From an uncultured bacterium (lineage in GTDB: Bacteria; Patescibacteriota; Minisyncoccia; Moranbacterales; GWC2-37-73): a stretch of 64,000 nt of DNA. Of this stretch, positions 3,946-44,814 are shown piece by piece. The stretch spans positions 17,513-81,512 of the forward strand of contig CAILTR010000050.1 of the NCBI GenBank assembly GCA_903837175.1. The letters are read 5' to 3'. The notes under the pieces are model-generated. The model made no database searches. It worked only from the letters and a program-made list of their open reading frames with translations, and was not told the DNA's origin. A program made the position numbers and the translations under genes. The stretch's first letter is position 1. The number at the start of each line of letters is the position of its first letter.

Positions 3946-3977
3946 AAGCCTCCCCTTGGAGGCTTAGCCTCTAACGT
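3946..3977. repeat. Hairpin repeat gaggctaagcctc-cccttgg-gaggcttagcctc. Related copies lie at 4165-4180 and 41361-41395.
   Basis: Perfect 13-bp inverted repeat that is GC-rich relative to the surrounding sequence. Confidence 0.7.
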
Positions 3978-4260
3978 CTTATTACTGCAACGCATTAAGT
4001 TAAGTTGGTATAGGTTGGCATTATTTATGCTTCATAAAAATTCGCATTTTTTATCTAACTCTTACCCACGTCTTTTTCGTCGCAGAATTTCCAACCCCAT
4101 CATAAGCCGTCACTTTGATTTCATACGTTCCGCTTGGGGTTGTTTGCAAAACGGTAAACCTGTTGCAAGGAGGCTTAGCCTCCAAAGTCTTGCGACAATG
4201 AATTAAGTTAAATAGTTAGTATTATACGCTAAACTCTTAGCTTTATTATAACACAAAAAA

Positions 4261-5088
4261 CTATTTCCGCACTTTTTTCTTTTCACTTATTTTCTTGAAA
4301 TTATTTCCAGAAACAATCGATCTGCCTAATTCCTTTTCAAGTTCTAGTCTCGCATTTCCAGCCACTCTTCCGCCACGATTGGCATCGTTTTTCAATTTTG
4401 GCAAACCTTTTGAATCCTCTGTGCGATGAATTTCAGTGGTTGAACGTTCGCCAAGCATCGTGAAAATAAGTTCAAAGTCATTCATGTGATCTCGCAAATT
4501 TTCCCGCTCCAACTTTTTCAATTTCTTATATTCACTTGGCGTGACACCGAAAGTCGCCTTGGAAATTTCCGCCGTCAAAATTTCGTATTCCCTTTTTTCT
4601 TTGGCACCTCTTTTTTTCCATTCATCCGTGAGTTCTTCGCGAATGGCAATGCCTCGCATGCGTTTTTCGATCCAATCATCCGAATAGCCTTTCAATTTAT
4701 ACAACATTCTTGTCCGCTTGGTCGCTAGTTCCGGATCTTCGATTTCCTGCACTCGCTCATAACCGACTTTTGCCAACCAACGCTTGAATGGCTCGGCTTT
4801 CGGTGACGGAATAGACTGAATAATGCGGAAAATTCCCTCCGTATTGGCACAATCAGTTTCACGCATTTTCCCGTCTGGTGCCATCAACTTCAAACCGTGA
4901 CAAAATGTCACGACTTCACTCCCATCCTCGTTGAGCCTCTGCTTCAATTTTCTCCAGTAAGCGCCACTATCAAGACTATCTGTGAGCACTTCGCAAATAT
5001 CCACAACCGAAAACCACCATTCATTATTGTGAATGATTTTTCTGACTCCCTTTCCCTTAAAAATCGAGACCTTTGTTTCAATTTCCAT
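4261..5088 (-). CDS. Bro-N domain protein (DinD / phage antirepressor-like).
   Basis: N-terminal ...VSIFKGKGVRKIIHNNEWWFSVVDICEVL... matches the Bro-N fold. Length is similar to E. coli DinD. Confidence 0.7.
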   Translation of the reverse strand: MEIETKVSIFKGKGVRKIIHNNEWWFSVVDICEVLTDSLDSGAYWRKLKQRLNEDGSEVVTFCHGLKLMAPDGKMRETDCANTEGIFRIIQSIPSPKAEPFKRWLAKVGYERVQEIEDPELATKRTRMLYKLKGYSDDWIEKRMRGIAIREELTDEWKKRGAKEKREYEILTAEISKATFGVTPSEYKKLKKLERENLRDHMNDFELIFTMLGERSTTEIHRTEDSKGLPKLKNDANRGGRVAGNARLELEKELGRSIVSGNNFKKISEKKKVRK

Positions 5089-10757: not shown

Positions 10758-10795
10758 CCCCAGGGCAAGCCTGCCTACAGGTAGGCAGGCCCTGG
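10758..10795. repeat. GC-rich quasi-palindromic REP-like element (gcctgcctacaggtaggcaggc core).
   Basis: Imperfect inverted repeat. Same family as 25207-25230, 58392-58418, 58591-58616, 41030-41052 and 42117-42139. Confidence 0.7.
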
Positions 10796-13385: not shown

Positions 13386-13446
13386 CATGGAACATGGAAC
13401 ATGAAACATGGAACAAAAATGCTCTATGCTCTATGCTCTATGTTTT
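13386..13446. repeat. CATGGAA heptamer microsatellite plus a gctctat tandem.
   Basis: catggaacatggaacatgaaacatggaac...gctctatgctctatgctctatg. Confidence 0.85.
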
Positions 13447-13453
13447 GTGACTT

Positions 13454-14725
13454 TTAAAATCCTTCATAATCTCGCATTACCAACTGCCCTTCGATTTGTT
13501 TAATCGTTTCAATCACCACCGAAACTACAATCAAAATACTCGTGCCGCCAATTCGTAGCGTTTGAATATTTGTTAGACCTTGCACAATAAAAGGGAGTAC
13601 AGCAATCGCCCCCAGAAACAAAGCCCCTGCTAATGTAATTCGGTTCATGATTTTATAAAGATAGTCAGCTGTAGTTTTTCCTGGGCGAATGCCTGGAATA
13701 TAGCCACCTTGCTTTTGGAGATTTTCTGAAATTTTTACGGGATCAAAAACCACCGCCGTATAAAAGTAAGTAAACATCACAATTAAGACAAAGTACATAC
13801 TGCTATAAAAAACTTGATTTTGAAATAAAGTATTTACGTTAGTCGCTAGCTGAGCTACAGTTTCGTTACTGGCTTTCGTTAAAAAAGTTGCAATCATTCC
13901 TGGGAAAAGCATAATGGACATCGCGAAAATAATTGGGATCACGCCAGCTTGATTAACGCGCAGTGGTAAGTGCGAAGACGCCCCACCATAGGTATTACCC
14001 CCGTGCACGCGTTTTGCGTAAGAAACCGCAATATTGCGCTGTCCTTCGGTAATTAAAACTACCCCGGCAATCGTAACTAGCATCACCGCTAAAATAATTG
14101 CGTAAGTAAAAAACTGAGTTGAATCAAAAGTTAAAAATAGCTTTGAGGCTGAAGACGGTAGACTGCTAACAATCCCAGCAAAGATGATTAATGAAACTCC
14201 ATTTCCAATCCCCTTTTCTGTAATAAGCTCTCCGAGCCACATCAAGAAAATCGTCCCTGTTGTTGCAATTAGCACTAACACTGCCATTTCAAAGGGCGAT
14301 AGAACCCCAATAACATTCTGCGAACGCAGTAAGGTTACTAAACCAAAAGTTTGCATTATTGCCAAAGGAACCGTTAGCCAACGCGTCCACATATTAAATT
14401 TCTGCCTACCCGCCTCACCTTCTTCTTTGTAGATTTGTTCAATCCTGGGTACTATCATCGTGAGCAGTTGCATAATAATCGAAGCTGTAATGTAAGGACC
14501 CACGCCCAACATCACAATCGAAATATTCGTGAGACCCCCTCCCGAAAAAACGTTTAGCATTCCTAGTAGTTGATTACCTTCAAAAAGACGACGCAATTGT
14601 TCACTATCAACCCCCGGAAGCGGAATATTAGCCGCTACCCGGAAAACAATAAGAATCCCCAGAATGAAGAGGATCTTATTGCGAAGTTCTTTTATTTTGA
14701 AAATTTGAGTTATCTTGTCTAACAT
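13454..14725 (-). CDS. secY: Preprotein translocase SecY.
   Basis: Ten TM helices and conserved SecY motifs. Confidence 0.95.
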   Translation of the reverse strand: MLDKITQIFKIKELRNKILFILGILIVFRVAANIPLPGVDSEQLRRLFEGNQLLGMLNVFSGGGLTNISIVMLGVGPYITASIIMQLLTMIVPRIEQIYKEEGEAGRQKFNMWTRWLTVPLAIMQTFGLVTLLRSQNVIGVLSPFEMAVLVLIATTGTIFLMWLGELITEKGIGNGVSLIIFAGIVSSLPSSASKLFLTFDSTQFFTYAIILAVMLVTIAGVVLITEGQRNIAVSYAKRVHGGNTYGGASSHLPLRVNQAGVIPIIFAMSIMLFPGMIATFLTKASNETVAQLATNVNTLFQNQVFYSSMYFVLIVMFTYFYTAVVFDPVKISENLQKQGGYIPGIRPGKTTADYLYKIMNRITLAGALFLGAIAVLPFIVQGLTNIQTLRIGGTSILIVVSVVIETIKQIEGQLVMRDYEGF

Positions 14726-14730
14726 AAAAT

Positions 14731-14818
14731 AGCTTCACTAGCTTCACTAGCTTCACTAGCTTATAGCCCATTTTTAGAAAAAATTCTAAAAGCTAAAAAC
14801 TAAAAGCTAAAAGCTATT
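14731..14818. repeat. Tandem cttcactag x3 plus Family D agctaaaagcta repeats between rplO and secY.
   Basis: agcttcactagcttcactagcttcactagc ... ctaaaagctaaaaactaaaagctaaaagcta. Confidence 0.85.
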
Positions 14819-15251
14819 CTTTAATGGTTCCTCCTGCTTTCATTATAACATCTTTAGCAGTTTGTGAAAGGAGTAGCTCCTTCTCAATTGTCAGCTTCTT
14901 AGAAAGATCACCAGTGCTTAAAATTTTCACCCCATCTTTAGCATCTTTCTTGGAAATAACTTTCTTTGCAATTAAAGTTTCGATTGAAACTAGCTCGCCA
15001 TCTTTAAAGTTCTTTTCCAAATCAAAGATTTTAACAACCGTCTTTTTTGGAGTTCTAGATTTAAAACCGCGAACTTTCTTTAGACGTTCTGTCAAGGAGG
15101 ATCTTCCACCTTCAAACAAAGGATCAATCGCTGCTCCTGAGCGGGCTTTTTGACCTTTGTTTCCACGTCCAGAATATGTTCCGCGCTTTCCTCCGCGACC
15201 AACAGTTTTCTTTGGTTTTCTTTTCTTAAGTGTAAGTTGATGAATTTGCAT
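14814..15251 (-). CDS. rplO: Ribosomal protein L15.
   Basis: RGGKRGTYSGRGNKGQK motif. Start is MQIHQL at 15251. Confidence 0.9.
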   Translation of the reverse strand: MQIHQLTLKKRKPKKTVGRGGKRGTYSGRGNKGQKARSGAAIDPLFEGGRSSLTERLKKVRGFKSRTPKKTVVKIFDLEKNFKDGELVSIETLIAKKVISKKDAKDGVKILSTGDLSKKLTIEKELLLSQTAKDVIMKAGGTIKE

Positions 15252-15275
15252 ATGTTTTATATCTCTAATCAACAC

Positions 15276-15363
15276 TAATTATTTCACTAATTATCTCTAA
15301 TATCTTTCAATTTATATTCGCGAACATTCGAGAAAAATTCGTGTCGATTCGCGATTTATATCC
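15276..15363. repeat. Family A intergenic element, copy 1.
   Basis: ...ctctaatcaacactaattatttcactaattatctctaat...attcgcgaacattcgagaaaaattcgtgtcgattcgcgat... Confidence 0.85.
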
Positions 15364-15870
15364 TTAAGCTTCCTTAACCACGACCGCCTCAGCCTTAATC
15401 CTTGGCTCCTTTAGACTTCGCAAAGCTTCAATTGTTGCTCTGGCAACGTTTAATTTATTTGAAGTTCCCAGTGATTTTGAAACAATATCCCGGATTCCAG
15501 CCAAATCAACCACTGCGCGGACAGCTCCTCCAGCAATCACCCCTCGTCCTTCAGCCGCTGGCTTAAGTAAAATTTTAGCACTACCCTTTTTCATTTGAAC
15601 ATCATGCGGGATAGTATTTGCAGATAATTTTACAGTTATCATGCATTTTTTAGCATCGTTGTAAGCTTTTTGGATTGCATCAGAAACATCAGATCCTTTA
15701 GCTACCCCAACCCCAACTTGTCCCTTACGATTTCCGATTACGAGGGTTGCGCGAAAACGAAATCTTCGTCCGCCTTTAACTACGCGAGTAACTCTAGCCA
15801 AATCTAAAAGCTTTTGCTCAAATTCTGGCTTTTCTCTTCTCACTGGTTTTTTGCCTGATCTTTTATCCAT
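15364..15870 (-). CDS. rpsE: Ribosomal protein S5.
   Basis: Conserved S5 sequence. Confidence 0.95.
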   Translation of the reverse strand: MDKRSGKKPVRREKPEFEQKLLDLARVTRVVKGGRRFRFRATLVIGNRKGQVGVGVAKGSDVSDAIQKAYNDAKKCMITVKLSANTIPHDVQMKKGSAKILLKPAAEGRGVIAGGAVRAVVDLAGIRDIVSKSLGTSNKLNVARATIEALRSLKEPRIKAEAVVVKEA

Positions 15871-15983
15871 AATGTTATAAATCTCTAATTAACGCTAATC
15901 TTATCACTAATTATCTCTAATATTTTTCAAATTATATTCGCGAATATTCGAGAAAAATTCGTGTTGATTCGCGATTGATATCC
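15871..15983. repeat. Family A element, copy 2.
   Basis: Same consensus, with four phased ATTCG pentamers. Confidence 0.85.
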
Positions 15984-16334
15984 TTAAAATTTGAGTCCGC
16001 CTTCTCGAGCTCCTTCAGCTAAAGCCTTAACTCTTCCATGATATTGATAACCCGATCTATCGAAAGTCACAGTTTCTATCTTTAAAGCAAGACATTTTTC
16101 AGCAATTAATTTTCCAACTTCCTTGGCGCCTTCAATCGTATTTGAACTCTTCTTAATTTCTGAAAGTTTTGCGCTAGCCAAAGTTTTTCCAGTAGTATCA
16201 TCAATCGCTTGAGCATAAATACTTTTCAAGCTTTTAAAAACCGACAAACGCGGTCGCTCAGCGCTACCTGAAATTTTTGCGCGCACACGACGTTTTCGTT
16301 GCAAACGACTACTATTGTTACTTGGTTTTTTCAT
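15984..16334 (-). CDS. rplR: Ribosomal protein L18.
   Basis: Conserved L18 sequence. Confidence 0.93.
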
Positions 16335-16444
16335 AATGGTATAAATCTCTAATCAACACTAATTATTTCACTAATTATCTCTAATATTTTTAATTATATT
16401 CGCGAACATTCGAGAAAAATTCGTGTCGATTCGCGATTTATTTC
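16335..16444. repeat. Family A element, copy 3.
   Basis: Same consensus. Confidence 0.85.
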
Positions 16445-16981
16445 TTACTTGGATGATTTCTTGCCTTCTTTTCTGCGAACATGTTCTCCGGTGTATTTAA
16501 AGCCTTTTCCTTTATACGGTTCTACTGGCTTAAGCGCTCTGATATTGGCTGAAAATTGTCCAACTTCATGCTTATCAATCCCGGAAACGGTCATTGTATT
16601 TCCTTCAATAATGATTTCAAGCGTTTCTGGAATTTGAACTTCAACTGGGTGTGAAAAACCAAGCGCTAAATTAATTTTCTTACCTGCTACTGCCATACGG
16701 AAACCAACTCCGTTAAGTTCAAGTTGTTTTTTAAAACCAACGGTTACGCCTTCAAACATATTTTCAATAATCCTAGCAGTTGTACCCCAAATCGCTGGCG
16801 CATTTTTTCCTTTTCCTACTTTCGCAACTAAGATAGTTTCCGGTGAAATTTCAATAACGACATCTTCATGATGCTCAAATTTAAGAGTGCCCTTTGGCCC
16901 TTTAACGGAAACCAAATTCTTATCTACAGCGATAGTCACTCCCTGAGGAATAGCTACAGGTTTTTTTCCAATTCTACTCAT
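16445..16981 (-). CDS. rplF: Ribosomal protein L6.
   Basis: Conserved L6 sequence. Confidence 0.95.
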   Translation of the reverse strand: MSRIGKKPVAIPQGVTIAVDKNLVSVKGPKGTLKFEHHEDVVIEISPETILVAKVGKGKNAPAIWGTTARIIENMFEGVTVGFKKQLELNGVGFRMAVAGKKINLALGFSHPVEVQIPETLEIIIEGNTMTVSGIDKHEVGQFSANIRALKPVEPYKGKGFKYTGEHVRRKEGKKSSK

Positions 16982-17094
16982 AATGTTATAAATCTCTAAT
17001 CAACACTAATTATTTCGCTAATTATCCCTAATATTTTTTAAATTATATTCGCGAACATTCGAGAAAAATTCGTGTCGATTCGCGATTTATATAA
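16982..17094. repeat. Family A element, copy 4.
   Basis: Same consensus. Confidence 0.85.
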
Positions 17095-17499
17095 TTACCA
17101 GACTTCACAAATTATTTCACCACCTAAACCGAGTTTTCTTGCGCTATCTCCTGTCATGATTCCTTTCGAAGTGGAAACAATTGAAATCCCATAGCCATTC
17201 TTGATTCGCTTGATATCATTTTTCTTCACATAGATCCGCTGGCCCTGTCTACTTACTCGCTTTATTTCTCTAATGGCCGGATTTTTCTCAGTGTTTGAAA
17301 CAACCTCATACTTCAAAGTTATATTGAGGACTGGAAATTTTTCTCCGTCTTCTTTTTTCACAGCTTGAATAAAATTTCGTTGCTGCAAAATTTGAGCAAT
17401 TGAATATTTTAACTTCGAAAAAGGAACCGAAACTTTTGCATGTTTCGCTCGCTGTGCATTTCGAATTCTTGTAAGCATGTCTGCTATTGGATCTAACAT
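17095..17499 (-). CDS. rpsH: Ribosomal protein S8.
   Basis: MLDPIADMLTRIRNA N-terminus. Confidence 0.95.
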   Translation of the reverse strand: MLDPIADMLTRIRNAQRAKHAKVSVPFSKLKYSIAQILQQRNFIQAVKKEDGEKFPVLNITLKYEVVSNTEKNPAIREIKRVSRQGQRIYVKKNDIKRIKNGYGISIVSTSKGIMTGDSARKLGLGGEIICEVW

Positions 17500-17639
17500 A
17501 TTCTAATTCATTATCCTAATTATATTTAAATGATATAAATCGCCAATCTTCACTAATCTTTTCACTAATAATCACTAATTTTGAAATTTTATTTGCGATT
17601 ATTCGAGATACTATTTGAGTTGATTCGTGATTTATAATG
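17500..17639. repeat. Family A element, copy 5 (divergent).
   Basis: ...cactaat...attcgagatactatttgagttgattcgtgat... Confidence 0.6.
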
Positions 17640-17825
17640 CTACCAACTACTTTTCTTTACTCCGGGCAATTCACCTTTACTTGCTAATTCGCGAAAGCAA
17701 ATTCTGCAAATATCAAATGCTCGAAGATAACCATGTTTTCGACCACAACGCCAACACCTTCGCACAATCCGTGTCGAAAATTTTGGTTTCTTCTCTGCTC
17801 TAGCTTGGGTAGATGTTTTCGCCAT
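17640..17825 (-). CDS. rpsZ: Ribosomal protein S14 type Z (zinc-binding).
   Basis: 61 aa with CWRCGRKHG...CRIC. Confidence 0.93.
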
Positions 17826-17995
17826 TTTTGTCTATGAGCGGAGCGAGTAGCTACAAAAATGAGCGTCCCGCACCAATTCTTAAATTAAACTTTATCTTAT
17901 ATCAAACTGAGCCGTAGGCGAATTCCGAAAGAAAATTTCAATTCTACTTAAAAACTTCTTTCGGAATTGTTTGCGGGACAGCCATCACAATTTAT
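17826..17995. promoter_or_regulatory. Structured 170-nt spacer between rplE and rpsZ built from nested inverted repeats.
   Basis: Outer gtcccgca (17865-17872) pairs with tgcgggac (17972-17979). An inner perfect 11-bp stem ttccgaaagaa (17924-17934) pairs with ttctttcggaa (17957-17967). Confidence 0.5.
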
Positions 17996-18544
17996 TTATT
18001 CGCTTTTCAGTGGAAATCCTAATAATTTAAATAATTCCAATCCCTGCTCTTGTGAAACAGCACTAGTTGAAACTGTTACTTGCAATCCAAAAGTGTGTTT
18101 TACTCGTTCAGGTGAAATTTCAGGAAAAATTAAATGCTCTCTAATTCCAATATTAATGTTGCCACTCGTATCAACCGATTTTCTACCAATTCCCTGGAAA
18201 TCTCGCGTTCTTGGAAGGGTTGCTACAATCAATCTATCAATAAACTGCCACATTCTTGCTCCGCGCAAAGTTACTTTCACACCGACTTCCATGCCTTCTC
18301 TAGTCTTAAAGCCGGCGATTGCTTTCTTAGCTTTCGTCTTAACTGGTTTTTGACCAGTAATCGCAGTTAGTGTATTGACGATCTCTTCAATTTTATCATT
18401 TTCTTTGACAATTTTTCCAATTCCAACATTAACAACCACTTTCTGAATGCGAGGTACTGCCATAACACTCTTATAGCCAAACTTTTCTTGCATTTGCTTT
18501 GCAACTGTTTTGGAATATTTTTCTTTTGCTGGAATTATTTTCAT
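17996..18544 (-). CDS. rplE: Ribosomal protein L5.
   Basis: Conserved L5 sequence. Confidence 0.95.
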   Translation of the reverse strand: MKIIPAKEKYSKTVAKQMQEKFGYKSVMAVPRIQKVVVNVGIGKIVKENDKIEEIVNTLTAITGQKPVKTKAKKAIAGFKTREGMEVGVKVTLRGARMWQFIDRLIVATLPRTRDFQGIGRKSVDTSGNINIGIREHLIFPEISPERVKHTFGLQVTVSTSAVSQEQGLELFKLLGFPLKSE

Positions 18545-18651
18545 AATAGTATAAATCTCTAATTAATCACTAATCTATTTCACTAATTATCCCTAATGTT
18601 TTTTATTCGCGACTATTCGAGAAAAATTCGTGTCGATTCGCGATTTATTTT
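18545..18651. repeat. Family A element, copy 6.
   Basis: Same consensus. Confidence 0.85.
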
Positions 18652-18957
18652 CTACATTTCTTTCCCACATTTCTTACATACTCGGACCTTTTTCTCTTGC
18701 ACAAACGCATATGAGGTTCGGGTCGATTTACCGCAGGATGGGCAAACCAACATCGCATTTGAAGCATCGAACGGAGCAGCCATTTCAACCCGCTGGCCCT
18801 TTTCACCTTCTCGGCGAGCTTTCTTATGCTTCTTTACAATATTCATTTTTTCAACCACGATCCTTCCCTCACTTGGAATTGTTCGGAGGACTTTCCCCTG
18901 TTTACCCTTATCCTTACCGGCAATTTTTTTTACGAGGTCTCCTTTTTTAATTCTCAT
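18652..18957 (-). CDS. rplX: Ribosomal protein L24 with a C-terminal Cys4 zinc ribbon.
   Basis: KOW motif GKDKGKQGKV, then CPSCG...CKKCG at the C-terminus. Confidence 0.92.
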   Translation of the reverse strand: MRIKKGDLVKKIAGKDKGKQGKVLRTIPSEGRIVVEKMNIVKKHKKARREGEKGQRVEMAAPFDASNAMLVCPSCGKSTRTSYAFVQEKKVRVCKKCGKEM

Positions 18958-19066
18958 AATGTTATAAATCTCTAATTAACGCTAATCTTATCTCTAATTA
19001 TCTCTAATATTTTTTACTATTCGCGAAAATTCGAGAAAAATTCGTGTCGATTCGCGATTGATATCC
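18958..19066. repeat. Family A element, copy 7.
   Basis: Same consensus. Confidence 0.85.
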
Positions 19067-19432
19067 TTACAGTACTTCTGGAGCCAATGAAACAATCTTG
19101 GCAAATCCTTTTTCTCGCAATTCTCTAGCGATTGGTCCAAAAATACGAGTTCCCTTCGGTTCTTTTTCATTAACAATCACAGCGGCATTTTCATCAAAGC
19201 GAATATAGGAACCATCTTTTCTGCGATAAGCTTTTCGTTGGCGAACAATCACAGCCCGAACCTTATCTCCCTTTTTTACTAAACCTCTTGGTTCAGCTGA
19301 TTTCACAGAGCAAACAATGATATCTCCAACCGAAGCATAACGTCTGCGAGTTCCACCAAGAACCTTGAAGCATTCAATTATTTTTGCTCCAGAATTATCC
19401 GCTGCTCTTAATCTTGTTTCTGCCTGAATCAT
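19067..19432 (-). CDS. rplN: Ribosomal protein L14.
   Basis: [18 protein letters not shown]-terminus. Confidence 0.95.
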
Positions 19433-19543
19433 ATGTTTAAATAAATCTCTAATTAACGCTAATCTTATCTCTAATTATCTCTAATATTTTTTACTATTCG
19501 CGATCATTCGAGAAAAATTCGTGTCGATTCGCGATTGATATCC
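19433..19543. repeat. Family A element, copy 8.
   Basis: Same consensus. Confidence 0.85.
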
Positions 19544-19783
19544 TTATATTACGATGTGATTTTTATCCTTACTCATTGGCCGACATTCAGTAAACTCTAC
19601 CACCTCTCCAACCTTGTGCTTATTTTCGGCGTCATGAACCTTATAGTTTTTGGTCGATCGATACTTCTTTAAATATTTCGGATGCGTCTTCAAGGATTGA
19701 ACAGCCACCACAATAGTCTTATCCATTGAGTCACTCACAACTTTACCTTTTTTTGTTGCTAATTTTTTAGTAGTGTTTGTCAT
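19544..19783 (-). CDS. rpsQ: Ribosomal protein S17.
   Basis: Conserved S17 OB-fold sequence. Confidence 0.93.
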   Translation of the reverse strand: MTNTTKKLATKKGKVVSDSMDKTIVVAVQSLKTHPKYLKKYRSTKNYKVHDAENKHKVGEVVEFTECRPMSKDKNHIVI

Positions 19784-19811
19784 ATCCTAGTTTTTATCCT
19801 AATTATATATT

Positions 19812-20000
19812 TTATTGCTCTTTCTCTTTTAGAATAGTCATCGCCCGCGCTACATCCTTTTTAAGCTCGCGGTACTCTCGATGATTCTTAAGCTGACGAG
19901 CTGCAATATCAAATCTAAGCTTAACTGCTTGAGATTGCTTCTCAGCGATTAATTTCTTAATCTGCTCAATATTTAAATCTCTAATTTCCAAAATTTTCAT
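19812..20000 (-). CDS. rpmC: Ribosomal protein L29.
   Basis: 62-aa helical protein in the conserved position between S17 and L16. Confidence 0.9.
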   Translation of the reverse strand: MKILEIRDLNIEQIKKLIAEKQSQAVKLRFDIAARQLKNHREYRELKKDVARAMTILKEKEQ

Positions 20001-20113
20001 AATGTTATAAATCGCTAATTAATCACTAATCTACTTCCCTAATTATCCCTAATGTTCTTTTCTTATTCGCGACCATTCGAGAAAAATTCGTGTCGATTCG
20101 CGATTACTATCCT
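20001..20113. repeat. Family A element, copy 9.
   Basis: Same consensus. Confidence 0.85.
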
Positions 20114-20527
20114 CTATTTTTCCTTAACTACAAATTTCGTCTTAACGCATAGTTTGTGAGAAGCCAATCTCATCGCCTCTTTAGCAACTGAGATATCTAT
20201 GCCATCCATCTCAAACAAAACTCTGCCTTCCTTGGTCTTGGCTACAAAATGATCAACACTACCCTTTCCTTTACCCATCGGAGTTTCATCACCCTTCTTA
20301 GTCATCGGTTTATCCGGGAAAATTCTAATCCAAATCTTTCCACCTCTCTTAATATACCTCGTCATCGCTCTTCGAGCAGCTTCGATCTGACGAGCTGAAA
20401 TTAATCCTGAGGTTGTTGCTTTAAGACCAAAGCTACCGAAACTTACAGTATTACCTTTGGTTGCAACTCCACGGATTGCTCCTCCGCGATGAATCTTCCT
20501 GTGTTTTACTTTTTTTGGCATCAACAT
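20114..20527 (-). CDS. rplP: Ribosomal protein L16.
   Basis: [11 protein letters not shown] start at 20527. The ORF extension to 20551 lies inside a degenerate Family A remnant. Confidence 0.93.
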
Positions 20528-20595
20528 ATATTTTGGTAAATCCCTAATCAACGCTAATTATTCCCTAATTTTCTCGAATCTTTTTTCATTGGTGA

Positions 20596-21273
20596 CTATT
20601 TAAGACTAGCTTCAGCTTGATTCGCATTTTTTTCTTCAAAGACTTCTCCCTTGTAAATCCAAGTCTTAATTCCAATTGCGCCATAGGTAGTGAACGCCGT
20701 AGCTTTAGCGAAATCTATGTCAGCCCGTAGCGTATGCAATGGAACCGTTCCTCTTGAAAGCCATTCTCTTCTAGCCATTTCAGCTCCGCCCAAACGACCG
20801 CAAATCTCAATCTTGACTCCCTTAACAATTCTATTTTTTTCAACTGTATCAAGGGTTGATTTCAAAATACGTCTAAATGGCACTCGCTTTTCTAACTGTT
20901 CAGCCACGCTTTGCGCAACTAGCGAAGCATTTTCCTCAAACTGACGGACTTCCTGAGCTTCTATTTTAAGGTCAACCTTCCTACCGGCGAAAAAGTTTTT
21001 CTTAATCACTACTCCCATATCAACGATACCAGTGCCACCCCTTCCAATCAGAACTCCCGGGCGCGATGTTTTCACGATCAATTTTAGAGTATTTGCGCTA
21101 CGCTCAATTTCAACCTCTGCAATTGCCGCTGCTTTATACTTTTTCATGATAAACTCCCTAATTTGGATATCCTCCTTGAGTTTTTTAGTATAATCCTTAT
21201 CTGAAAACCACCTTGATTTCCAAGTGTTGGTAATACCTATTCTAAGTCCAGTTGGGTTAACTTTATGTCCCAT
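20596..21273 (-). CDS. rpsC: Ribosomal protein S3.
   Basis: MGHKVNPTGLRIG N-terminus and a KH domain. Confidence 0.95.
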   Translation of the reverse strand: MGHKVNPTGLRIGITNTWKSRWFSDKDYTKKLKEDIQIREFIMKKYKAAAIAEVEIERSANTLKLIVKTSRPGVLIGRGGTGIVDMGVVIKKNFFAGRKVDLKIEAQEVRQFEENASLVAQSVAEQLEKRVPFRRILKSTLDTVEKNRIVKGVKIEICGRLGGAEMARREWLSRGTVPLHTLRADIDFAKATAFTTYGAIGIKTWIYKGEVFEEKNANQAEASLK

Positions 21274-21312
21274 AAATTCTAATTTAATATCCTAATTATA
21301 TGCTAATTAAAT

Positions 21313-21873
21313 TTAAACGCCTGATTTCCGCTGAAAAACTTTATTCAAAAAATTACCATCTTGTTGTTGTCCTTTTTTAGGAACTTCCTTTTTTACAGCA
21401 GTCTTTTTCGTCGCAGTCTTTTTTTCGCCCACAACTTCAGCGTCTTGCACCTCTTCTTCTTTAACGCTTTTCTTGATAGCCTTTTCTTTCACGGCTCGTT
21501 CCTTCTCTAACTGCTCTTTCGATTTACGATTTTTACCTTCGACTCGCTCTTCCAATTCCAAATCAATCTGGGAAGTTCTCTTGAGAATCAAAGTTGCTCT
21601 TCCTTGAGCCCTTGGCAACCATCTTTTTAAACTTGGTCCCCCGCCAACTTGAATATTATTTACAAACAAATTGTCCTTATCTAAACCAAAGTTATTTTCC
21701 GCATTTGCAATCGCGCTTCGCAGAAGCTTTTCCAAAGGATTACTTGTTTTCTTAACAAGGTTTTGCAATTGGATCAATGCCACAGAGCAGTTCATCCCAA
21801 CAATGCTGCGGGTAACTAATCTAACCTTTCGGGGAGACATTCTTAAATTTTTGAGTGTTGCTGTAACTTTCAT
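21313..21873 (-). CDS. rplV: Ribosomal protein L22 with a ~70-aa Lys/Glu-rich C-terminal extension.
   Basis: L22 core at the N-terminus, then a low-complexity KEKAIKKSVKEEE... tail. Confidence 0.92.
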   Translation of the reverse strand: MKVTATLKNLRMSPRKVRLVTRSIVGMNCSVALIQLQNLVKKTSNPLEKLLRSAIANAENNFGLDKDNLFVNNIQVGGGPSLKRWLPRAQGRATLILKRTSQIDLELEERVEGKNRKSKEQLEKERAVKEKAIKKSVKEEEVQDAEVVGEKKTATKKTAVKKEVPKKGQQQDGNFLNKVFQRKSGV

Positions 21874-22021
21874 GTATTTCTCTACGAATTACTAATTTGT
21901 ACGAATGTACGAATCATGATTCATTTGTATATGACATTAAATTCTAACTTTTATTAAATTTATAATCTCTTTTGCATTTCTTTCGTATATTCGTATCTGT
22001 TCGTAATTCGTAGAGATTTAC
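21874..22021. repeat. Family B-type element with terminal inverted repeats ctctacgaattac / gtaattcgtagag.
   Basis: TIRs lie at 21880-21892 and 22003-22015. Internal tacgaat repeats. Confidence 0.7.
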
Positions 22022-22369
22022 CTATTTTTTCTTCGCTCCTCCTGCTGGTTCAGCCTTGGCTGCTTTAGCGGCATCTTGCGCTTTTTGCTTAGCTGCTGAT
22101 TCTAATTCTTTCTGCATCTTCCCTCCATGTCGGGTGAACTTACGAGTTGGAGAAAATTCTCCAAGTCTATGCCCAACTGTTTCTTCAGTAATATAAACTG
22201 GGATAAATTCTTTTCCATTATGCACTCCGAAAGTAAAACCAATCATTTCTGGGGTAATCGTGCAAGCTCGAGACCAGGTCTTAATAGTTCCTTGCGCTGG
22301 GGTTGCATTTAAAACCTTCTTTACAACGCGCTCATCAATATATGGTCCTTTTTTTAAACTTCTTGACAT
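22022..22369 (-). CDS. rpsS: Ribosomal protein S19 with a Lys/Ala-rich C-terminal tail.
   Basis: [13 protein letters not shown]-terminus; tail ...[24 protein letters not shown]. Confidence 0.93.
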
Positions 22370-22482
22370 AATGTTATAAATCTCTAATCAATGCTAATTA
22401 TTTCACTAATTATCTCTAATATTTCTCAATGCTTATTCGCGAAAATTCGAGAAAAATTCGTATCGATTCGCGACTATTATCC
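22370..22482. repeat. Family A element, copy 11.
   Basis: Same consensus. Confidence 0.85.
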
Positions 22483-23313
22483 TTATTTCTTAACTCTTCG
22501 TTTAACGATAAACTTATCGCTGTATCTCTTTTTCTTTCTGGTCTTTTTTCCAAGCGCTGGCTTACCCCAAGGTGTTTTCGGATGTTTCAACCCAATTCCT
22601 TGTCTGCCTTCTCCTCCTCCATGTGGATGATCAACTGGATTCATAGCTGAACCTCGAACTTCCGGTCTTTTTCCTTTCCATCGATTTCTTCCAGCCTTAC
22701 CAATTTTTTCAGCGCTATGTTCGAAATTACTTACTTTCCCAATCGTTGCCCAGCAATCCTTACTAACCAATCTGATTTCATTAGAGGCCATTTTAAGCTG
22801 AGCCATTTTTCCATCGATAGCCATCAAAATTGCTCCTGAGCCAGCACTGCGAGCCATCTGTCCGCCCTTCCCAACCACTAACTCCACATTTGAAATAACT
22901 GTACCGGAAGGAATATTACGAAGAACAGTTCTATTTCCCTTTTTAATCGGTGCATTTTCTCCAGAAACAATTTCAACATCTTGTTTCATCCCTTCGGAGG
23001 CAAGCACATATCGCTTATCACCATCTTTATAAGATACCAAAGCAATCAAAGCACTTCTGTTTGGATCTCTTTCGATTGCAATAATTTTTCCAGGAATATC
23101 AAATTTCTGTTGTTTAAAATCAACTAAGCGATAGCGTCGTTTGTGTCCACCACCTTGATGCCTAGTAGAGATTTTTCCGTGACTGCGTCCGGCCTTTTGG
23201 GTCATTGGAGCAAGTAAAGATTTCTCCGGTTTTTTGTCGGTAAGATCGTCAGGCTTAACAATAGACATATTGCGCCTTCCCGCTGTATTTTTTTTGTATA
23301 CTTTAATTGCCAT
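22483..23313 (-). CDS. rplB: Ribosomal protein L2.
   Basis: Conserved L2 sequence, including the GGGHKRRYR region. Confidence 0.96.
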   Translation of the reverse strand: MAIKVYKKNTAGRRNMSIVKPDDLTDKKPEKSLLAPMTQKAGRSHGKISTRHQGGGHKRRYRLVDFKQQKFDIPGKIIAIERDPNRSALIALVSYKDGDKRYVLASEGMKQDVEIVSGENAPIKKGNRTVLRNIPSGTVISNVELVVGKGGQMARSAGSGAILMAIDGKMAQLKMASNEIRLVSKDCWATIGKVSNFEHSAEKIGKAGRNRWKGKRPEVRGSAMNPVDHPHGGGEGRQGIGLKHPKTPWGKPALGKKTRKKKRYSDKFIVKRRVKK

Positions 23314-23423
23314 AATAGTATAAATCTCTAATCAACACTAATTATTTCACTAATTATCACTAATATTCTTCTTATTCGCGATTATTCGAGTTTAAATTCG
23401 AGTCGATTCGCGATTTCTATCCG
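23314..23423. repeat. Family A element, copy 12.
   Basis: Same consensus. Confidence 0.85.
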
Positions 23424-23807
23424 CTAGGCTCCCTGGAATAGTTCAATTTTATCTCCCTCTTTCAGAGTAACGATTGCTTTTTTAATCGCTGACTTCGTAC
23501 CTTCAAATCTACCATATACTCTCTTTTTCGGGATAAAATTCATTACTGCAACCTTCTCAACTTTAACTTTATAAAAACCCTCGATTGCCTTTTTAACCTC
23601 AGCTTTCGTAGCCTGCCTGGTAATCCTAAAAACATATTTATTATCGGCAAGTCCCGCGTGTGATTTTTCCGTAATCCAAGGCTCCACTAAAATTTTATAA
23701 GCAATTTCAGCATTTTCAACAGCGATAGGCAAAACCTTTTTCGCTACTTTCTTAACTGCCACTTCTTTCTTTGAAGTCTTTTCTTTTTTTTCTTCAATTA
23801 CTGCCAT
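23424..23807 (-). CDS. rplW: Ribosomal protein L23 with a Lys-rich N-terminal extension.
   Basis: L23 core (YVFRI...KVKVEKV) preceded by roughly 30 extra residues. Confidence 0.9.
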   Translation of the reverse strand: MAVIEEKKEKTSKKEVAVKKVAKKVLPIAVENAEIAYKILVEPWITEKSHAGLADNKYVFRITRQATKAEVKKAIEGFYKVKVEKVAVMNFIPKKRVYGRFEGTKSAIKKAIVTLKEGDKIELFQGA

Positions 23808-23895
23808 ATATTTTTACCGATACGAAACTACGAATTATATACGAATCTACGAAACTTTTCGAATGGGCGCTTTCGTGGTGCGCTTTTCGCATGCT
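23808..23895. repeat. Family B element, copy 1: ccgatacgaaactacgaattatatacgaatctacgaaa...gggcgctttcgtggtgcgc.
   Basis: Nearly identical to the copy at 24526-24614. Confidence 0.85.
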
Positions 23896-24525
23896 TTATT
23901 TTGCAAATTTTTCTTCCAAAAATGTAATCGAGGCCTTACTCAAAAGCACATATTTATTATTGAGTAAATCATATACATTCAAATCTTTCGTCTCAATGTT
24001 AGCTATTTTTGGAATATTTCGGCTAGCTAAAGTCAAACTCTTCTCTCCTTCTGAAAATGAAACCAAAATTTTTCCGGTTAATTTCAAATTTTTTATAATT
24101 TGAGCAAAAGCTTTAGTTTTTTTGTCTTTAAGTTCAAGTGCGTCAACGGCCACAAGGGTCCCGCTGCGAAGCTTTTCACTTAGGGCAATACGTACCGCCT
24201 TTTGCTTCATCTTCTTATTCACATCTCTTTTAAAATTACGATCACTTGTTGGTCCGAAAGCTACTCCACCACCTTTCATGACAGGATTTCGCTTCTGGCC
24301 TTGTCTAGCACTACCGGTGCCCTTTTGCTTAAAGGGTTTCTTTCCGCTTCCAGCAACTTCACTCTTATCTTTTGTATTAGCAATTGAAAATCGCTGATTA
24401 CCAGCAATCACCATAAAAACTTGATGCAAAAGTTCATCATTTGATTTCACGGCGAAAACTGCATCTGAGATATTTAAATCTTCAAGCTTTTTTCCTTCTA
24501 AGTTGTGCAGGGCAATTGTAGCCAT
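23896..24525 (-). CDS. rplD: Ribosomal protein L4.
   Basis: Conserved L4 sequence. Confidence 0.94.
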   Translation of the reverse strand: MATIALHNLEGKKLEDLNISDAVFAVKSNDELLHQVFMVIAGNQRFSIANTKDKSEVAGSGKKPFKQKGTGSARQGQKRNPVMKGGGVAFGPTSDRNFKRDVNKKMKQKAVRIALSEKLRSGTLVAVDALELKDKKTKAFAQIIKNLKLTGKILVSFSEGEKSLTLASRNIPKIANIETKDLNVYDLLNNKYVLLSKASITFLEEKFAK

Positions 24526-24614
24526 AATATTTATACCGATACGAAACTACGAATTATATACGAATCTACGAAATTTTCGAATGGGCGCTTTCGTAGTGCG
24601 CTTTTCGGATGCTT
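24526..24614. repeat. Family B element, copy 2.
   Basis: Nearly identical to the copy at 23808-23895. Confidence 0.85.
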
Positions 24615-25175
24615 CTATCCTCGAATTTCCACAATCCTTCCAACCACTCCTGGCACTCCGCCGAGGATACCAATCAGATTCTTTTCGAGATTCAAATAAA
24701 CAACCTTCATATTTTTAACTGATTTTCTTTTTCCGCCCATCCGTCCGGCCATTTTCTTTCCCTTGATAACATGCTGAGGTTGTTGAGCACCAATTGAACC
24801 AGGTGCGCGAAGATCATGCTTGTGTCCATGGGAAGCTGGAGATCCGCCGAAGCCATGACGCTTCACAACTCCTTGAAATCCTTTCGCTTTAGCAATTCCA
24901 CTAACCTTCACAATATCTCCAATTGCAAAATTTTCAACTGAAACTTTATCCCCGACTGCCAGCGTTACAGCTTCTGAACCTCTAAATTCTTTTCGATGAG
25001 TCACTCTGCGAGTTTTTTCAGTCGCAAGTTGCACAGCGCTGTAACCATCCTTTTCAATCGTTCTTACCACCGAAACGGTATTTGGCTCACATTCAATCAA
25101 GGTCACATTCAGTGCGCCTTGTTGTTGATCATACAACGTTGTCATCCCCATTTTTTTCCCTAAAATATGTTTCAT
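24615..25175 (-). CDS. rplC: Ribosomal protein L3.
   Basis: Conserved L3 sequence. Confidence 0.94.
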   Translation of the reverse strand: MKHILGKKMGMTTLYDQQQGALNVTLIECEPNTVSVVRTIEKDGYSAVQLATEKTRRVTHRKEFRGSEAVTLAVGDKVSVENFAIGDIVKVSGIAKAKGFQGVVKRHGFGGSPASHGHKHDLRAPGSIGAQQPQHVIKGKKMAGRMGGKRKSVKNMKVVYLNLEKNLIGILGGVPGVVGRIVEIRG

Positions 25176-25206
25176 ATCAGTAATTTTCTAATCTTTATCT
25201 TTAAAT

Positions 25207-25230
25207 TCGCCTGCCTGCCGGTAGGCAGGT
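25207..25230. repeat. GC-rich palindromic REP-like element cgcctgcctgccggtaggcaggta. A second hairpin ctggcttctcagccag lies at 25243-25258.
   Basis: Read directly from the sequence. Confidence 0.7.
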
Positions 25231-25390
25231 AGTTATAAAAAAACTGGCTTCTCAGCCAGCTCAATCAAAGGAATAATCCTTCGACTTAGCTAATTGAGTA
25301 TCCAACTTTTCAGTGGGACTTTAACTAGTTTTTTTCTTTTTTTCTAACTTATCTATTGTAAACCAATTCTTAAATTTATGCAAGCCTTTT

Positions 25391-25486
25391 AAGCGATTCG
25401 CGATTATTTGCATGTGTCCCCTTCCATCATTCGCATGTGCCCCATTCGTTATTCGCATGGGCGCTTTCGTAGTGCGCTTTCGCATG
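25391..25486. repeat. Family B variant with cattcgcatg x3 and a shared right arm gggcgctttcgtagtgcgctttcgcatgct.
   Basis: Right arm matches the Family B copies at 23808 and 24526. Confidence 0.7.
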
Positions 25487-25819
25487 CTACATTTTAATCT
25501 CCACGTCTACCCCAGCTGGTAAATCAAGCCCCGTGAGACTTTCAATAGTCTTAGCAGTTGGGTCCCAGATATCAACAAGTCGCTTATGAATTCGCATTTC
25601 ATATTGCTCCCGAGCATCCTTATGCACAAAAGTTGATTTATTCACAGTTACTTTGTGAATCTCTGTTGGAAGGGGTACTGGGCCAGTTACTCTAGCGCCT
25701 GTTCTTTCAGCAGTTTCAACGATTTTTCGCGCTGACTGATCGATCACTTTGCTGTCATAAGCTTTGATCTTGATTCTGATTCTTGTAGATTGTCCTGTTT
25801 CTATTTTTTTCGAAGCCAT
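25487..25819 (-). CDS. rpsJ: Ribosomal protein S10.
   Basis: Conserved S10 sequence. Confidence 0.95.
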
Positions 25820-25911
25820 CTGGGTAGATTAAGATAAAAATTACTATTTAAACGTTGTTCGAGTGAACACAAGCAGACATAATTTCTTATGTCTGCATAG
25901 TAAACTTGAAC

Positions 25912-27105
25912 TTACTTAATGATTTTAGTTGCAACACCAGCTCCAACTGTGCGTCCTCCTTCGCGAATCGCGAATCGCATTCCTTCTTCCATCGCAACTG
26001 GGGCAATCAATTTAACTATCAAGCTAATTGTATCTCCAGGCATAACCATTTCAGTTCCTTCTGGCAAAATAACTTCGCCAGTTACATCAGTTGTTCGGAT
26101 GTAGAATTGTGGTTTATATCCCTTAAAGAATGGGGTATGTCGTCCGCCTTCTTCTTTAGTTAGAATATAAATTTCTCCTTCAAATTCAGTGTGTGGGGTA
26201 ATTGAACCAGTTTTAGCCAAAACTTGTCCGCGTTCAACATCTTCTTTCTTAATTCCGCGAAGCAAAAGTCCTGCGTTATCTCCAGCTTGTCCTTTATCTA
26301 GAGATTTATTAAACATTTCAATCCCAGTTACGACAGTTTTCACCGTTGGGCGAAGACCGACAATTTCAACTTCTTCATTGATATTGATTGTTCCTCGTTC
26401 GATTCTTCCAGTTACCACTGTTCCACGACCTTCAATTGAGAAGATATCTTCAATCGGCATCAAAAGTGGTTTGTCAGTATCTCGAACTGGGTCAGGAATT
26501 TTTGAATCCAAAGCAGCCATTAAATCATAGATTGGTTTAGCCGCTGGATCTTCAATAGATGTCGCTACTAGGGCCTTGGTCGCTGAACCGCGAACAACTG
26601 CAGCGTTATCACCGTCAAATTCATATTTTGTCAAAAGTTCACGAATTTCAGCTTCAACCAAGTCAATCAATTCAGCGTCATCAACCATATCAACTTTATT
26701 GATGAAAACTACGATTGCTGGCACTCCAACTTGTTTAGCAAGCAAAATGTGCTCGCGAGTTTGAGGCATTGGGCCATCAGTCGCGCTAACCACAATAATA
26801 GAACCGTCCATTTGAGCAGCTCCCGTAATCATGTTCTTGATATAATCAGCATGTCCCGGACAATCAACATGAGCGTAGTGACGAGCTTCAGTTTCATATT
26901 CACAATGTGAAGTCGCGATAGTAATTCCACGTTCTCTTTCTTCTGGAGCATTATCAATTTCGTTTACGCCTCTTTCTTTAGCAAAACCTTTTAGAGATTG
27001 GCAATGCAAAATAGCCGCGGTCAAAGTTGTCTTGCCGTGGTCGACGTGTCCAATTGTTCCTACGTTTACATGTGGTTTTGTGCGCTCAAATTTAGCTACT
27101 GCCAT
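25912..27105 (-). CDS. tuf: Translation elongation factor Tu.
   Basis: [14 protein letters not shown] and NKVD GTPase motifs. 397 aa. Confidence 0.97.
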
Positions 27106-28773: not shown

Positions 28774-28888
28774 AAGTTTATTTTTATTAAAATATTATTA
28801 TTTAAAACTCTCATTTACTTCACAATTTTCCTGCCTACCAGCAAGCAAGCATTTAATCATTGAGATTTTATTGATCATTGATTATTGT

Positions 28889-29821: not shown

Positions 29822-30033
29822 AGAATATTTCTTATTATTGAATTAAAGAATTACAGAAATTTTGAATTTCTAATTTTGAATTTTGAATCAATTTTTAATT
29901 TTTCAATATTTCAAACATTCAATCATTAGAATTTGATTCGAAATTCAAAATTCAGAATTCGAAATTATTTGCAGTATTTGATTACTAGTTACTAACTACC
30001 GATTACTAGTTACTGATTACTAGTTACTAGTTA
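29822..30033. repeat. Low-complexity tandem repeat region: ttactagttac units plus aattttgaatt/aattcaaaatt inverted motifs.
   Basis: Read directly from the sequence. Confidence 0.8.
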
Positions 30034-44775: not shown

Positions 44776-44814
44776 CATAAAAATTATTTTCAAAAAAATT
44801 ATTGCATTCTTATT

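Follow-up and report, generated by a model that had tools for sequence, protein, structure and literature searches.

ERIC sequences (or IRU) are imperfect palindromes of ~110-127 nucleotides (nt) without an open reading frame (ORF) that lie in intergenic DNA that is transcribed, frequently within operons, vary in their presence between orthologous sites, and have reported orientation-dependent effects on the expression of flanking genes. REP/BIME sequences are operon-internal palindromic units that bind gyrase, IHF and Pol I and affect mRNA stability, each REP unit being a stable hairpin of ~35 nt with a GTAG end and associated RAYT transposases. Correia elements (CREE/NEMIS) and other miniature inverted-repeat transposable elements (MITEs) are gene-adjacent sequences of ~100-150 nt with terminal inverted repeats that occur in both orientations and can alter the expression of their neighbours. 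Few known gene arrays are as compact and conserved as bacterial ribosomal-protein operons. We describe here Family A, an element of ~110 nt that recurs in the stop-to-start spacers of the S10/spc ribosomal-protein operon of an uncultured member of the Patescibacteria (candidate phyla radiation, CPR), in a stretch of 64,000 nt from contig CAILTR010000050.1 of assembly GCA_903837175.1 (hereafter the window). Comparison with about ten related genomes, whose operons were gathered by pattern scans and look-ups of L5 homologues, shows Family A to be an old, clade-specific (Candidatus Moranbacteria), selectively maintained, modular intercistronic cassette that would be read by its sequence, and most likely it is not junk but influences how the following gene is expressed. 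Literature searches turned up no account of repeats of this kind in Patescibacteria or Moranbacteria, and the element is apparently undescribed.

ERIC, REP/BIME and Correia-type repeats are by analogy the nearest known sequences, alike in position and form, but Family A lies outside these families: target duplications and a stable hairpin are lacking, and its copies have not decayed neutrally. Like ERIC it is an operon-internal imperfect palindrome of similar size, with its own transcription presumed; its host, however, belongs to another phylum, no sequence relationship is expected and the likeness is one of analogy only. It differs further in being composed of 4 + 4 phased pentamer units, in lying flush with stop and start codons in almost a single orientation, in being able to fill more than half of the junctions of a ribosomal-protein operon, and in being constrained in its motifs with no covariation of a helix. 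Like REP/BIME, Family A is intergenic, operon-internal and repeated, but it lacks 35-nt GTAG hairpin units, folds weakly (mean z = -1.5) and is accompanied by no RAYT-like ORF in the loci examined. With the Correia elements and other MITEs it shares terminal inverted repeats, approximate length, gene-adjacent position and occurrence in both orientations; MITEs, however, carry TA target duplications and exist as near-identical recent copies in random orientation, whereas Family A has no visible duplication, copies that are ~75% identical, orthologues conserved above the synonymous rate and an orientation ratio of 57:2.

The host was placed in Candidatus Moranbacteria from the names on its closest L5 homologues. 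The window has a GC content of ~38% and carries nearly all of its genes on the minus strand. Positions 13454-27105 code for EF-Tu, S10, L3 through L15 and SecY (the S10/spc operon), with a Pfam-confirmed minus-strand order of L3-L4-L23-L2-S19-L22-S3-L16-L29-S17-L14-L24-L5-S14-S8-L6-L18-S5-L15-SecY; L30 is missing, all genomes compared keep the universal S10/spc gene order, and no rRNA gene was found in any of the loci examined. Shine-Dalgarno sites are all but missing from the genome, with AGGAGG upstream of just 1 of 65 window genes; start contexts are A/T-rich. Family A is present in the spacers of this operon as 11 full copies and one partial copy, the filled spacers being L23-L2, L2-S19, L16-L29, S17-L14, L14-L24, L24-L5, S14-S8, S8-L6, L6-L18, L18-S5 and S5-L15, with the S3-L16 spacer only partly Family A. 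Two further copies lie outside the operon, one upstream of mraY (MraY, 54791-55891 by Pfam) and one upstream of the gene after ftsA (FtsA, 49147-50415 by Pfam), which encodes a 613-amino-acid protein with no Pfam match. The original prediction, made from the window alone, had placed a conserved element at 12 operon junctions and at these two outside sites, all of which were located, the last two with corrected extents. Its wording that the element fills nearly every spacer was overstated, since 12 of ~21 operon junctions hold it, although the enrichment over the rest of the window is strong (2 of 44 junctions; Fisher p = 5e-6); the remaining operon junctions are short or contain other repeat families. 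It had also held that the element always abuts the downstream start codon, which is true once the starts of four genes, set too far upstream by the ORF finder, are moved to their true ATGs (L15, 15251; L16, 20527; mraY, 55891; post-ftsA gene, 49031), except that ~30 nt of native leader separate the S8 copy from its ATG. The copies and closely related arrays are as follows, with L023 denoting a related locus.

15252-15363, minus strand: copy from the S5 stop to the L15 ATG (15251); 98 bits; 112/112 positions identical to the L023 orthologue.
15871-15983, minus strand: exemplar copy, L18 to S5; 101 bits; sense strand TAA, GGATATCAATC, four CGAAT, AT-rich linker, four ATTAG, GATTTATAACATT, ATG; in plus-strand coordinates the CGAAT array is at 15936-15975 and the ATTAG array at 15885-15921.
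16335-16444, minus strand: copy, L6 to L18; 95% identity with the L023 orthologue.
16982-17094, minus strand: copy, S8 to L6; 96% identity with the L023 orthologue.
17530-17639, minus strand: diverged copy, S14 to S8; 73 bits; whole spacer 97% identical to L023.
17500-17529, minus strand: native S8 leader after the S14-S8 copy, TTTAAATATAATTAGGATAATGAATTAGAAT followed by ATG.
18545-18651, minus strand: copy, L24 to L5.
18958-19066, minus strand: copy, L14 to L24.
19433-19543, minus strand: copy, S17 to L14.
20001-20113, minus strand: copy, L16 to L29; 94% identity with L023, junction-specific deviations included.
20528-20595, minus strand: partial copy, S3 to L16 (ATG 20527); one degenerate TTCGA and three ATTAG units.
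21274-21312, minus strand: short L22-S3 spacer with three ATTAG units only, a start-proximal array without a CGAAT array.
22370-22482, minus strand: copy, L2 to S19.
23314-23423, minus strand: copy, L23 to L2; junction also occupied in L011, L003, L005 and L023.
49032-49146, minus strand: copy from the FtsA stop to ATG 49031 of the 613-amino-acid protein.
55892-56002, minus strand: diverged copy from the D-Ala-D-Ala carboxypeptidase stop to the MraY ATG (55891).
25392-25486, minus strand: related stop-proximal CGAA(A/T) array after the S10 stop, adjoining the upstream side of a promoter-like site, GGCTTGCAT-N17-TACAAT.

Read in the sense direction, the element is small, has no ORF and runs from the stop codon through (GGA)TATAAATC, a CGAAT array, an AT-rich linker of 0-26 nt, an ATTAG array and ATT to the ATG. 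The stop-proximal module consists of four (T/A)CNCGAAT units, in the order TCGCGAAT - CGACACGAAT - TTTTCTCGAAT - GTTCGCGAAT, and the start-proximal module of four ATTAGNG units, in the order ATTAGAGATA - ATTAGTGAAATA - ATTAGTGTTG - ATTAGAGATTTATAAC, ending in GATTTATAAC-ATT before the ATG. The second half is the unit-by-unit reverse complement of the first (TCTCTAAT matches TCGCGAAT, CAACACTAAT matches CGACACGAAT, and onward likewise), with CT or CA in place of each CG in the inverted comparison, which is the reason an nhmmer profile matches every copy on both strands; the two arrays are old copies of one another in inverted orientation. Across 40 copies, the units of either half are spaced 10-(11 or 12)-10. 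The plus strand of the window holds 11 phased ATTCG arrays (ten of four units and one of three) and 13 phased CTAAT arrays of three or four units, of which shuffled sequence yields 0 to 0.05. The ATTCG offsets of 0, 10, 21 and 31 given originally were correct, and the ctctaat/cactaatt "duplicated module" described as the other half of the element does exist, but as four phased CTAAT units that are the inverted homologue of the ATTCG array. The ends of the element form an imperfect terminal inverted repeat of 12-14 nt, TATAAATCGCGAAT and ATTAGAGATTTATA matching at 12 of 14 positions with the pattern TATAAATC(G/T)C(G/T)AAT, and a TATA(A/T)C box lies directly ahead of each ATG, ending 3-4 nt before it.

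Comparison of 11 orthologous copies between the window and L023 revealed 1152 of 1269 identical columns (91%), against 902 of 1509 (60%) at four-fold degenerate sites of the flanking genes (binomial p = 4e-136), indicating that selection maintains the copies. Identity is graded by class, from 98% in the pentamers through 90% at other arm positions and 80% in the linker to the 60% of four-fold sites. Junction-specific deviations are kept as well, at S14-S8, L16-L29 and S5-L15 with the identities listed above, and the copy at 49032-49146 has orthologues with the same junction-specific variants in L004 and L010. Copies within one genome are only ~75% identical. By these measures the DNA of the element is neither neutral nor recently amplified.

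The search of relatives that accompanied the original prediction as a proposed check was successful, in that the element is present in related Moranbacteria genomes, partly at different junctions.

L023 (L5 identity 95%): 14-15 Family A copies.
L011, L007/L009, L003, L005/L013 and L001: 1 to 10 Family A copies, at junctions that are partly different.
L026 (L5 identity 91%): no Family A; a sister family of four NCGAAT and four ATT(C/A)GGAT units abuts the ATG.
L028 (L5 identity 73%): Family A-like arrays at single junctions.
L024 (L5 identity 80%): Family A-like arrays at single junctions.
L027 (L5 identity 82%): nearly compact operon.
L025 (L5 identity 75%): compact operon with ordinary spacers of 1-30 nt.

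An A-like array is also found at the S14-S8 junction in L005 and L028. The window and L023 carry a different family at 6-7 of 21 junctions, and presence, absence and replacement at orthologous junctions are seen among the window, L011, L023, L026, L027, L024, L025 and L028, even between genomes with L5 proteins that are 90-95% identical. Junctions without Family A often hold other elements of the same plan (array, centre, inverted array) with motifs such as TACGAA/TTCGTA, CATGGAA, GCTTTTAG and ACAGAA, among others, and the sister families A', B, D and E have a CGAA core in common. As each copy is maintained, the turnover between relatives is best read as exchange of whole spacer alleles rather than decay.

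This turnover bears on the idea that Family A is a selfish MITE- or ERIC-like element merely tolerated in the spacers of essential operons, in which case the pentamers would be transposase-binding subterminal repeats. The imperfect terminal inverted repeats, the small size with no ORF, the occurrence of both orientations, the 6-7 of 21 junctions that differ from L023 and the existence of a compact relative, L025, all fit such an element. We nevertheless consider it improbable, as orthologues are conserved far above synonymous sites, copy-specific variants included, and the divergence of copies within a genome argues against a recent burst. No target-site duplication is visible in 54 copies, which are bounded by a stop codon to the left and by (A/C)(C/T)ATT and an ATG to the right. 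Neither ~350 kb of loci nor the genome, metagenome and viral collections scanned by pattern yielded a transposase or a longer autonomous partner, whole genomes not being searched. The collections scanned also contained no copies on viral contigs, phages or plasmids, the matches there being chance or simple repeats. In addition, the element is enriched at operon junctions and not in longer spacers elsewhere, and its 3' end is homologous to native leaders, as described below.

We examined the copies for RNA structure in two sets, one of 40 copies and then one of 54 copies from about ten genomes. RNAalifold returned no consensus pair in the 40 copies. For the arm-arm helix the covariation score was 0.035 versus 0.035 in shuffles for 40 sequences and 0.035 versus 0.037 for 54, the paired cells amounted to 90.7-91.2% versus 91.0-91.5% in shuffles for the two sets, and in the variable columns pairs were broken in up to 35 of 54 copies. 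The UCGCGA...UCGCGA stem of the original prediction did not hold up: at its six core pairs, which hardly vary, the common pair is kept in 82-100% of 40 copies, the departures are unpaired and never compensated, and the two pairs adjoining the core break freely (21/40 and 3/40). The compensatory changes it had proposed to look for were likewise not seen in the arm-arm helix of the 54 copies. Of its overall interpretation the constraint on an array of short sequence motifs stands and the RNA stem does not, while the DNA-binding protein that it put forward as reader of the motifs is a candidate taken up below. Mean folding z-scores of 13 window copies are -1.5 for the sense and -1.4 for the antisense strand; of eight copies folded singly, six gave values between +0.2 and -2.1 and the other two -3.0 and -3.7. 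The arms are ~75% complementary with regular, conserved G.A mismatches that are never repaired, and the arrays are predicted to be unpaired with a probability of 0.3-0.45, the linker with one of 0.66. The accessibility profile around start codons was not discriminating. Rfam gave no match at gathering score in the window and none relevant in 16 loci, and at E<=1 the sole match in the operon was a chance one to MIR403. No terminator-like site occurs on the sense strand of any copy, the only recurrent terminator-scan match being a 5-bp stem on the antisense strand in 4 of 14 copies, and the U-tract of an intrinsic terminator is missing from the element.

No RNA helix is supported, and the constraint acts on motifs rather than pairing, as there are no consensus pairs, no covariation, folds little better than those of shuffled sequence and no Rfam match. 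A stable hairpin, whether the UCGCGA stem or the arm-arm helix, acting as a processing site, mRNA stabiliser or terminator thus appears to us an improbable account of Family A. It would agree with the partial complementarity of the arms and with those copies that do fold well, such as 16982-17094 (-27 kcal/mol, z = -3.7 to -4.6), and the neighbouring families E and C are strongly structured (z of -4 to -8); most copies, however, fold no better than shuffles, unpaired variants are common, the G.A mismatches persist, and both a terminator U-tract and an Rfam match are missing.

The position of the element relative to genes is tightly defined. Every copy starts 0-6 nt past a stop codon and ends 3-7 nt before an ATG, with the exceptions of S8 (30 nt) and the S10-L3 copies, and across 13 loci 57 copies are oriented forward relative to the genes and two are reversed. 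Partial copies retain the start-adjacent ATTAG array, as seen at S3-L16 and L22-S3 in the window, S3-L16 in L011, S19-L22 in L003 and S19-L22 in L024/L027. Halves made of CGAAT units alone are found after the S10 stop, a place with no start codon next to it. The G of the last TTAG sits 14-16 nt before the ATG in Family A, and the same register is over-represented among single TTAG motifs of relatives without the element (15, 15, 16 and 17 nt in L025; 15, 16 and 16 in L024; 14 and 16 in L027). The last 20 nt of the element equal short native leaders in L027, L024 and L026, a match that follows from the L22-S3 spacer of L027, which ends in AATTAGAGATTTATAAAATT before the ATG, and from the L4-L23 spacer of L026, which consists entirely of TTTAGAGATTTATAAATAT. 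A second recurrent start context is TTAG(G/A)AT abutting the ATG (3 nt), found for example at S17, S8 and many L026 genes.

No sigma-70-like site recurs in the element, where promoter-like sites number 31 versus 33.4 in shuffles, and no -35/-10 pair at 16-18 nt spacing recurs; elsewhere in the window there are clear TTGACA-N16/17-TAnAAT promoters with an extended -10. It is therefore very improbable, in our view, that each element is a promoter from which ribosomal-protein genes are transcribed singly, possibly as leaderless mRNAs. The TATA(A/T)C box ahead of each ATG would suit such a promoter, and in L003 and L013 the element replaces a conserved internal promoter before the L3 leader, but the box lies 3-4 nt from the ATG, too close for a transcript to start at or before the A.

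The S10-L3 spacer (25176-25486) is a region of its own. Its promoter-like site, GGCTTGCAT-N17-TACAAT, is accompanied by a structured leader, CTAGTTAAAGTCC...GCTGGCTGAGAAGCCAGTTTTTTT (z = -4.5), that ends in a terminator-like hairpin and is kept in all relatives covering the junction, compact L025 included. The promoter-like site is present in the window, L011, L023, L024, L026 and L027 and missing from L003, L013 and L001. The leader has no Rfam match and may be an undescribed attenuator for the L3-L4... unit.

An RNA-level role for Family A is favoured because of the fixed distance from TTAG to ATG, the 57:2 orientation, the partial copies that keep the start-proximal array and the near absence of Shine-Dalgarno sites; the ends flush with stop and start, the match to native leaders and the lack of a recurrent promoter or terminator signal on the sense strand are further points on this side. 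The reading we tentatively prefer, judging from sequence comparison, is that Family A is a co-transcribed intercistronic leader or coupling cassette that would be read by sequence on the mRNA. The cassette would be part of the mRNA, and the ATTAG array together with the 3' end would form the translation-initiation leader of the downstream cistron, read by the 30S subunit or a dedicated factor. The CGAAT array after the upstream stop would mask this leader, only weakly because of the conserved G.A mismatches between the arrays, and the terminating ribosome would open the mask, tying initiation to upstream termination; many cistrons would thereby be given one standard initiation region. Such weak masking is plausible in folding models, given arrays that are complementary save for the G.A mismatches, the mean z of -1.5 and predicted unpaired probabilities that are lower in the arrays than in the linker. 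The arrangement has counterparts in rpmI-rplT coupling and in the split site of phage T4 gene 38, where sequence after a stop pairs with the next initiation region, upstream translation controls downstream initiation, and folding of the spacer draws the stop and the start together. In those cases the structure is single, specific to one gene and backed by pairing, whereas Family A is a repeated cassette with weak pairing and no covariation.

Several observations weigh against a leader or coupling cassette. Two independent reversed copies are nearly or fully intact, at murB-hpf in L002 (eight pentamers kept) and at S6-ssb in L006 (seven kept). A second TTAG peak, at 3 nt from the ATG, is at odds with a single fixed register. 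After the S10 stop of L003 and L013 there is a full copy, but what comes next is a leader RNA and not a start codon. In L023, L011 and L024 a conserved promoter-like site (GGCTTGCAT-N17-TAnnnT) precedes the L3 leader, and 8-15 nt upstream of its -35 there is a CGAAT x4 half-array, a clean half-element at the position of the window's post-S10 array. Co-transcription is presumed from operon structure and the absence of promoter-like sites only. The strict conservation of four CGAAT units beside the stop codon is not required by masking, and in neither the 40 nor the 54 copies is any pairing backed by covariation. Lastly, inverted unit homology with identical 10-12-10 spacing would most simply be one duplex-DNA motif in two orientations, as CGAAU and AUUAG are different motifs in single-stranded RNA.

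The last point leads to the close rival of the leader or coupling cassette, a protein-binding array on duplex DNA, which we regard as possible though on the unlikely side. Each arm would comprise four head-to-tail (T/A)CNC(G/T)AAT sites about one helical turn apart, the two arms converging, and the bound protein would modulate transcription or supercoiling in highly expressed operons; with the same reserve, a winged-helix or ribbon-helix-helix regulator, a nucleoid protein or a wrapping enzyme such as gyrase may be suggested as binder. The 10-(11/12)-10 spacing in both arms and the nearly invariant pentamers are consistent with this, and inverted-homologue arms without covariation are what would be expected of one site read in two orientations. 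The intact reversed copies, the CGAAT x4 half-arrays near a conserved promoter-like site in L023, L011 and L024, the CGAA core common to sister families A', B, D and E, and folding z-scores that are equal on both strands point the same way. Similar arrangements are known in iteron and tandem-operator arrays (parC/ParR, omega heptads, OmpR/PhoB-type), in which sites lie head to tail at about one per helical turn, sometimes as two arrays around an AT-rich centre; those, however, are single loci at promoters or centromeres, whereas Family A exists as dozens of operon-internal copies in fixed register to start codons. A DNA site also leaves the 57:2 bias relative to transcription unaccounted for, as it does the fixed distance from the last unit to the ATG, which native leaders in element-free genomes have in common with Family A, and the retention of the start-proximal array in partial copies. 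Two specificities would be needed for arms that differ systematically, with CGAAT in one and CTAAT in the other, and a linker of 0-26 nt means that no phase is fixed between them. Neighbouring spacers share the architecture with unrelated motifs and periods of 7-9 nt, so that one protein per motif would need many binders in a very small genome; Pfam scans of 50 window ORFs yielded only a Bro-N domain protein as a possible DNA binder, and no candidate binder was identified.

A bolder version of the leader and coupling cassette, rather unlikely as it stands and drawn from the sequence pattern, is that the operon has been rebuilt as a string of cistrons, each with a standard cassette. The AUUAG(N)G array, upstream of the AUG at a distance of 14-16 nt and more, would act as a novel ribosome-recruitment signal replacing Shine-Dalgarno sites, through pairing with the 16S rRNA 3' tail or through a dedicated factor, and the CGAAU array would provide termination-dependent unmasking, making the cassette an exchangeable part for equal, coupled translation of ribosomal proteins.

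Five other classes of element were considered and rejected. The ends are only loosely like the RYYYAAC...GTTRRRY cores of integron attC sites, no integrase was seen, and the genes are not integron cassettes because all genomes keep them in the universal S10/spc order. Resolvase res sites were dropped since direct repeats of that kind would cause gene loss from an essential operon, and Rho utilisation sites since the G content is too high. The element is not genome-wide as DNA uptake sequences are, and TCGCGA and TCGA are not avoided elsewhere in the window, contrary to a restriction-site idea.

Other repeats occupy further spacers of the window. Family B consists of GCGAAA/ACGAAA/TCGAAA units followed by four phased TTCGTA units ending ...CGGTAAAAATAT before the ATG; it has a TCGAAA-16/17-TATAAT promoter-like match, its right half recurs upstream of the gene at 39222-40334, and it is also found at other junctions in L005, L026 and L028. 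Family E is a 148-nt set of inverted TACGAA/TTCGTA arrays (z = -5.3 sense, -8.0 antisense) with a right arm much more conserved than the left, and its sites in relatives are L24-L5 (L011), L14-L24 (L003 and L028) and SecY-adk (L028). Family C, 170 nt long (z = -4.2) with no Rfam match, is common to the window and L011, and L023 has only 20 nt at the same junction; homologues occupy the L3-L4 junction of L013 and the S3-L16 junction of L001, and the family has the look of a structured insert that is mobile. The S6-ssb junction holds other repeat families in three related loci.

23808-23895 and 24526-24614: family B, filling the L4-L23 and L3-L4 spacers.
40335-40385: family B; 25447-25490: partial family B.
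21874-22021: family E, S19-L22 spacer.
17826-17995: family C, L5-S14 spacer.
10770-10789, 25210-25229, 28830-28849, 58393-58412 and 58597-58616: 20-nt palindrome CCTGCCTACCGGCAGGCAGG.
3939-3973, 4150-4184 and 41360-41394: 35-nt near-perfect palindrome AGAGGCTAAGCCTCCCCTTGGAGGCTTAGCCTCT (family D11), two full copies and one partial.
2753-2835, 13403-13453, 14726-14813, 29822-30033, 44794-44881, 46500-46571, 51483-51541, 54673-54790 and 63148-63245: tandem-unit spacers.
25873-25896: conserved hairpin GCAGACATAAGAAATTATGTCTGC in the EF-Tu-S10 spacer.

The 20-nt palindrome is present in five intergenic regions, with none expected by chance, and two copies of the 35-nt palindrome lie in a 651-nt non-coding stretch adjoining the Bro-N domain ORF (4261-5088). 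Many other spacers consist of tandem 7-9 nt units, often an array followed by an inverted array, the units including CATGGAA, AACACAT, GCTTTTAG/GCTAAAAG, TAACTAGTAA and CTTTATAA; this architecture was found in all related loci and appears to be a general property of intergenic DNA in the clade. The EF-Tu-S10 spacer is 93% identical to that of L023, and its hairpin, which has no strong U-tract, may be an attenuator or processing signal. Upstream of rpsF (S6) there is a conserved structured leader, ...AAGTCC...CCTTTCGCTCCGACGTAACGTCGGAGATAAAAGG...AATCCGCAAAGGAGGGCTTTCTTTGGCGGAT (L029, 3274-3503; L030, 5783-6000; L031, 5747-6000), with a TTGAC-type promoter ahead of it in L029 and L031, though not in the third locus, and with no Rfam match at gathering score.

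That over half of the junctions of a normally compact ribosomal-protein operon hold a selected 110-nt element indicates that this lineage can re-engineer the expression of these genes. The conserved start-proximal motif, at its fixed distance from the ATG, is a candidate for how internal cistrons are initiated in bacteria nearly free of Shine-Dalgarno sites, and if the arrays are instead DNA-binding sites, they would be the mark of a global regulator of ribosome synthesis in a phylum with almost unknown regulation. The element may also be useful as a marker of rapid exchange of spacer "alleles" between close relatives, with each allele under constraint.

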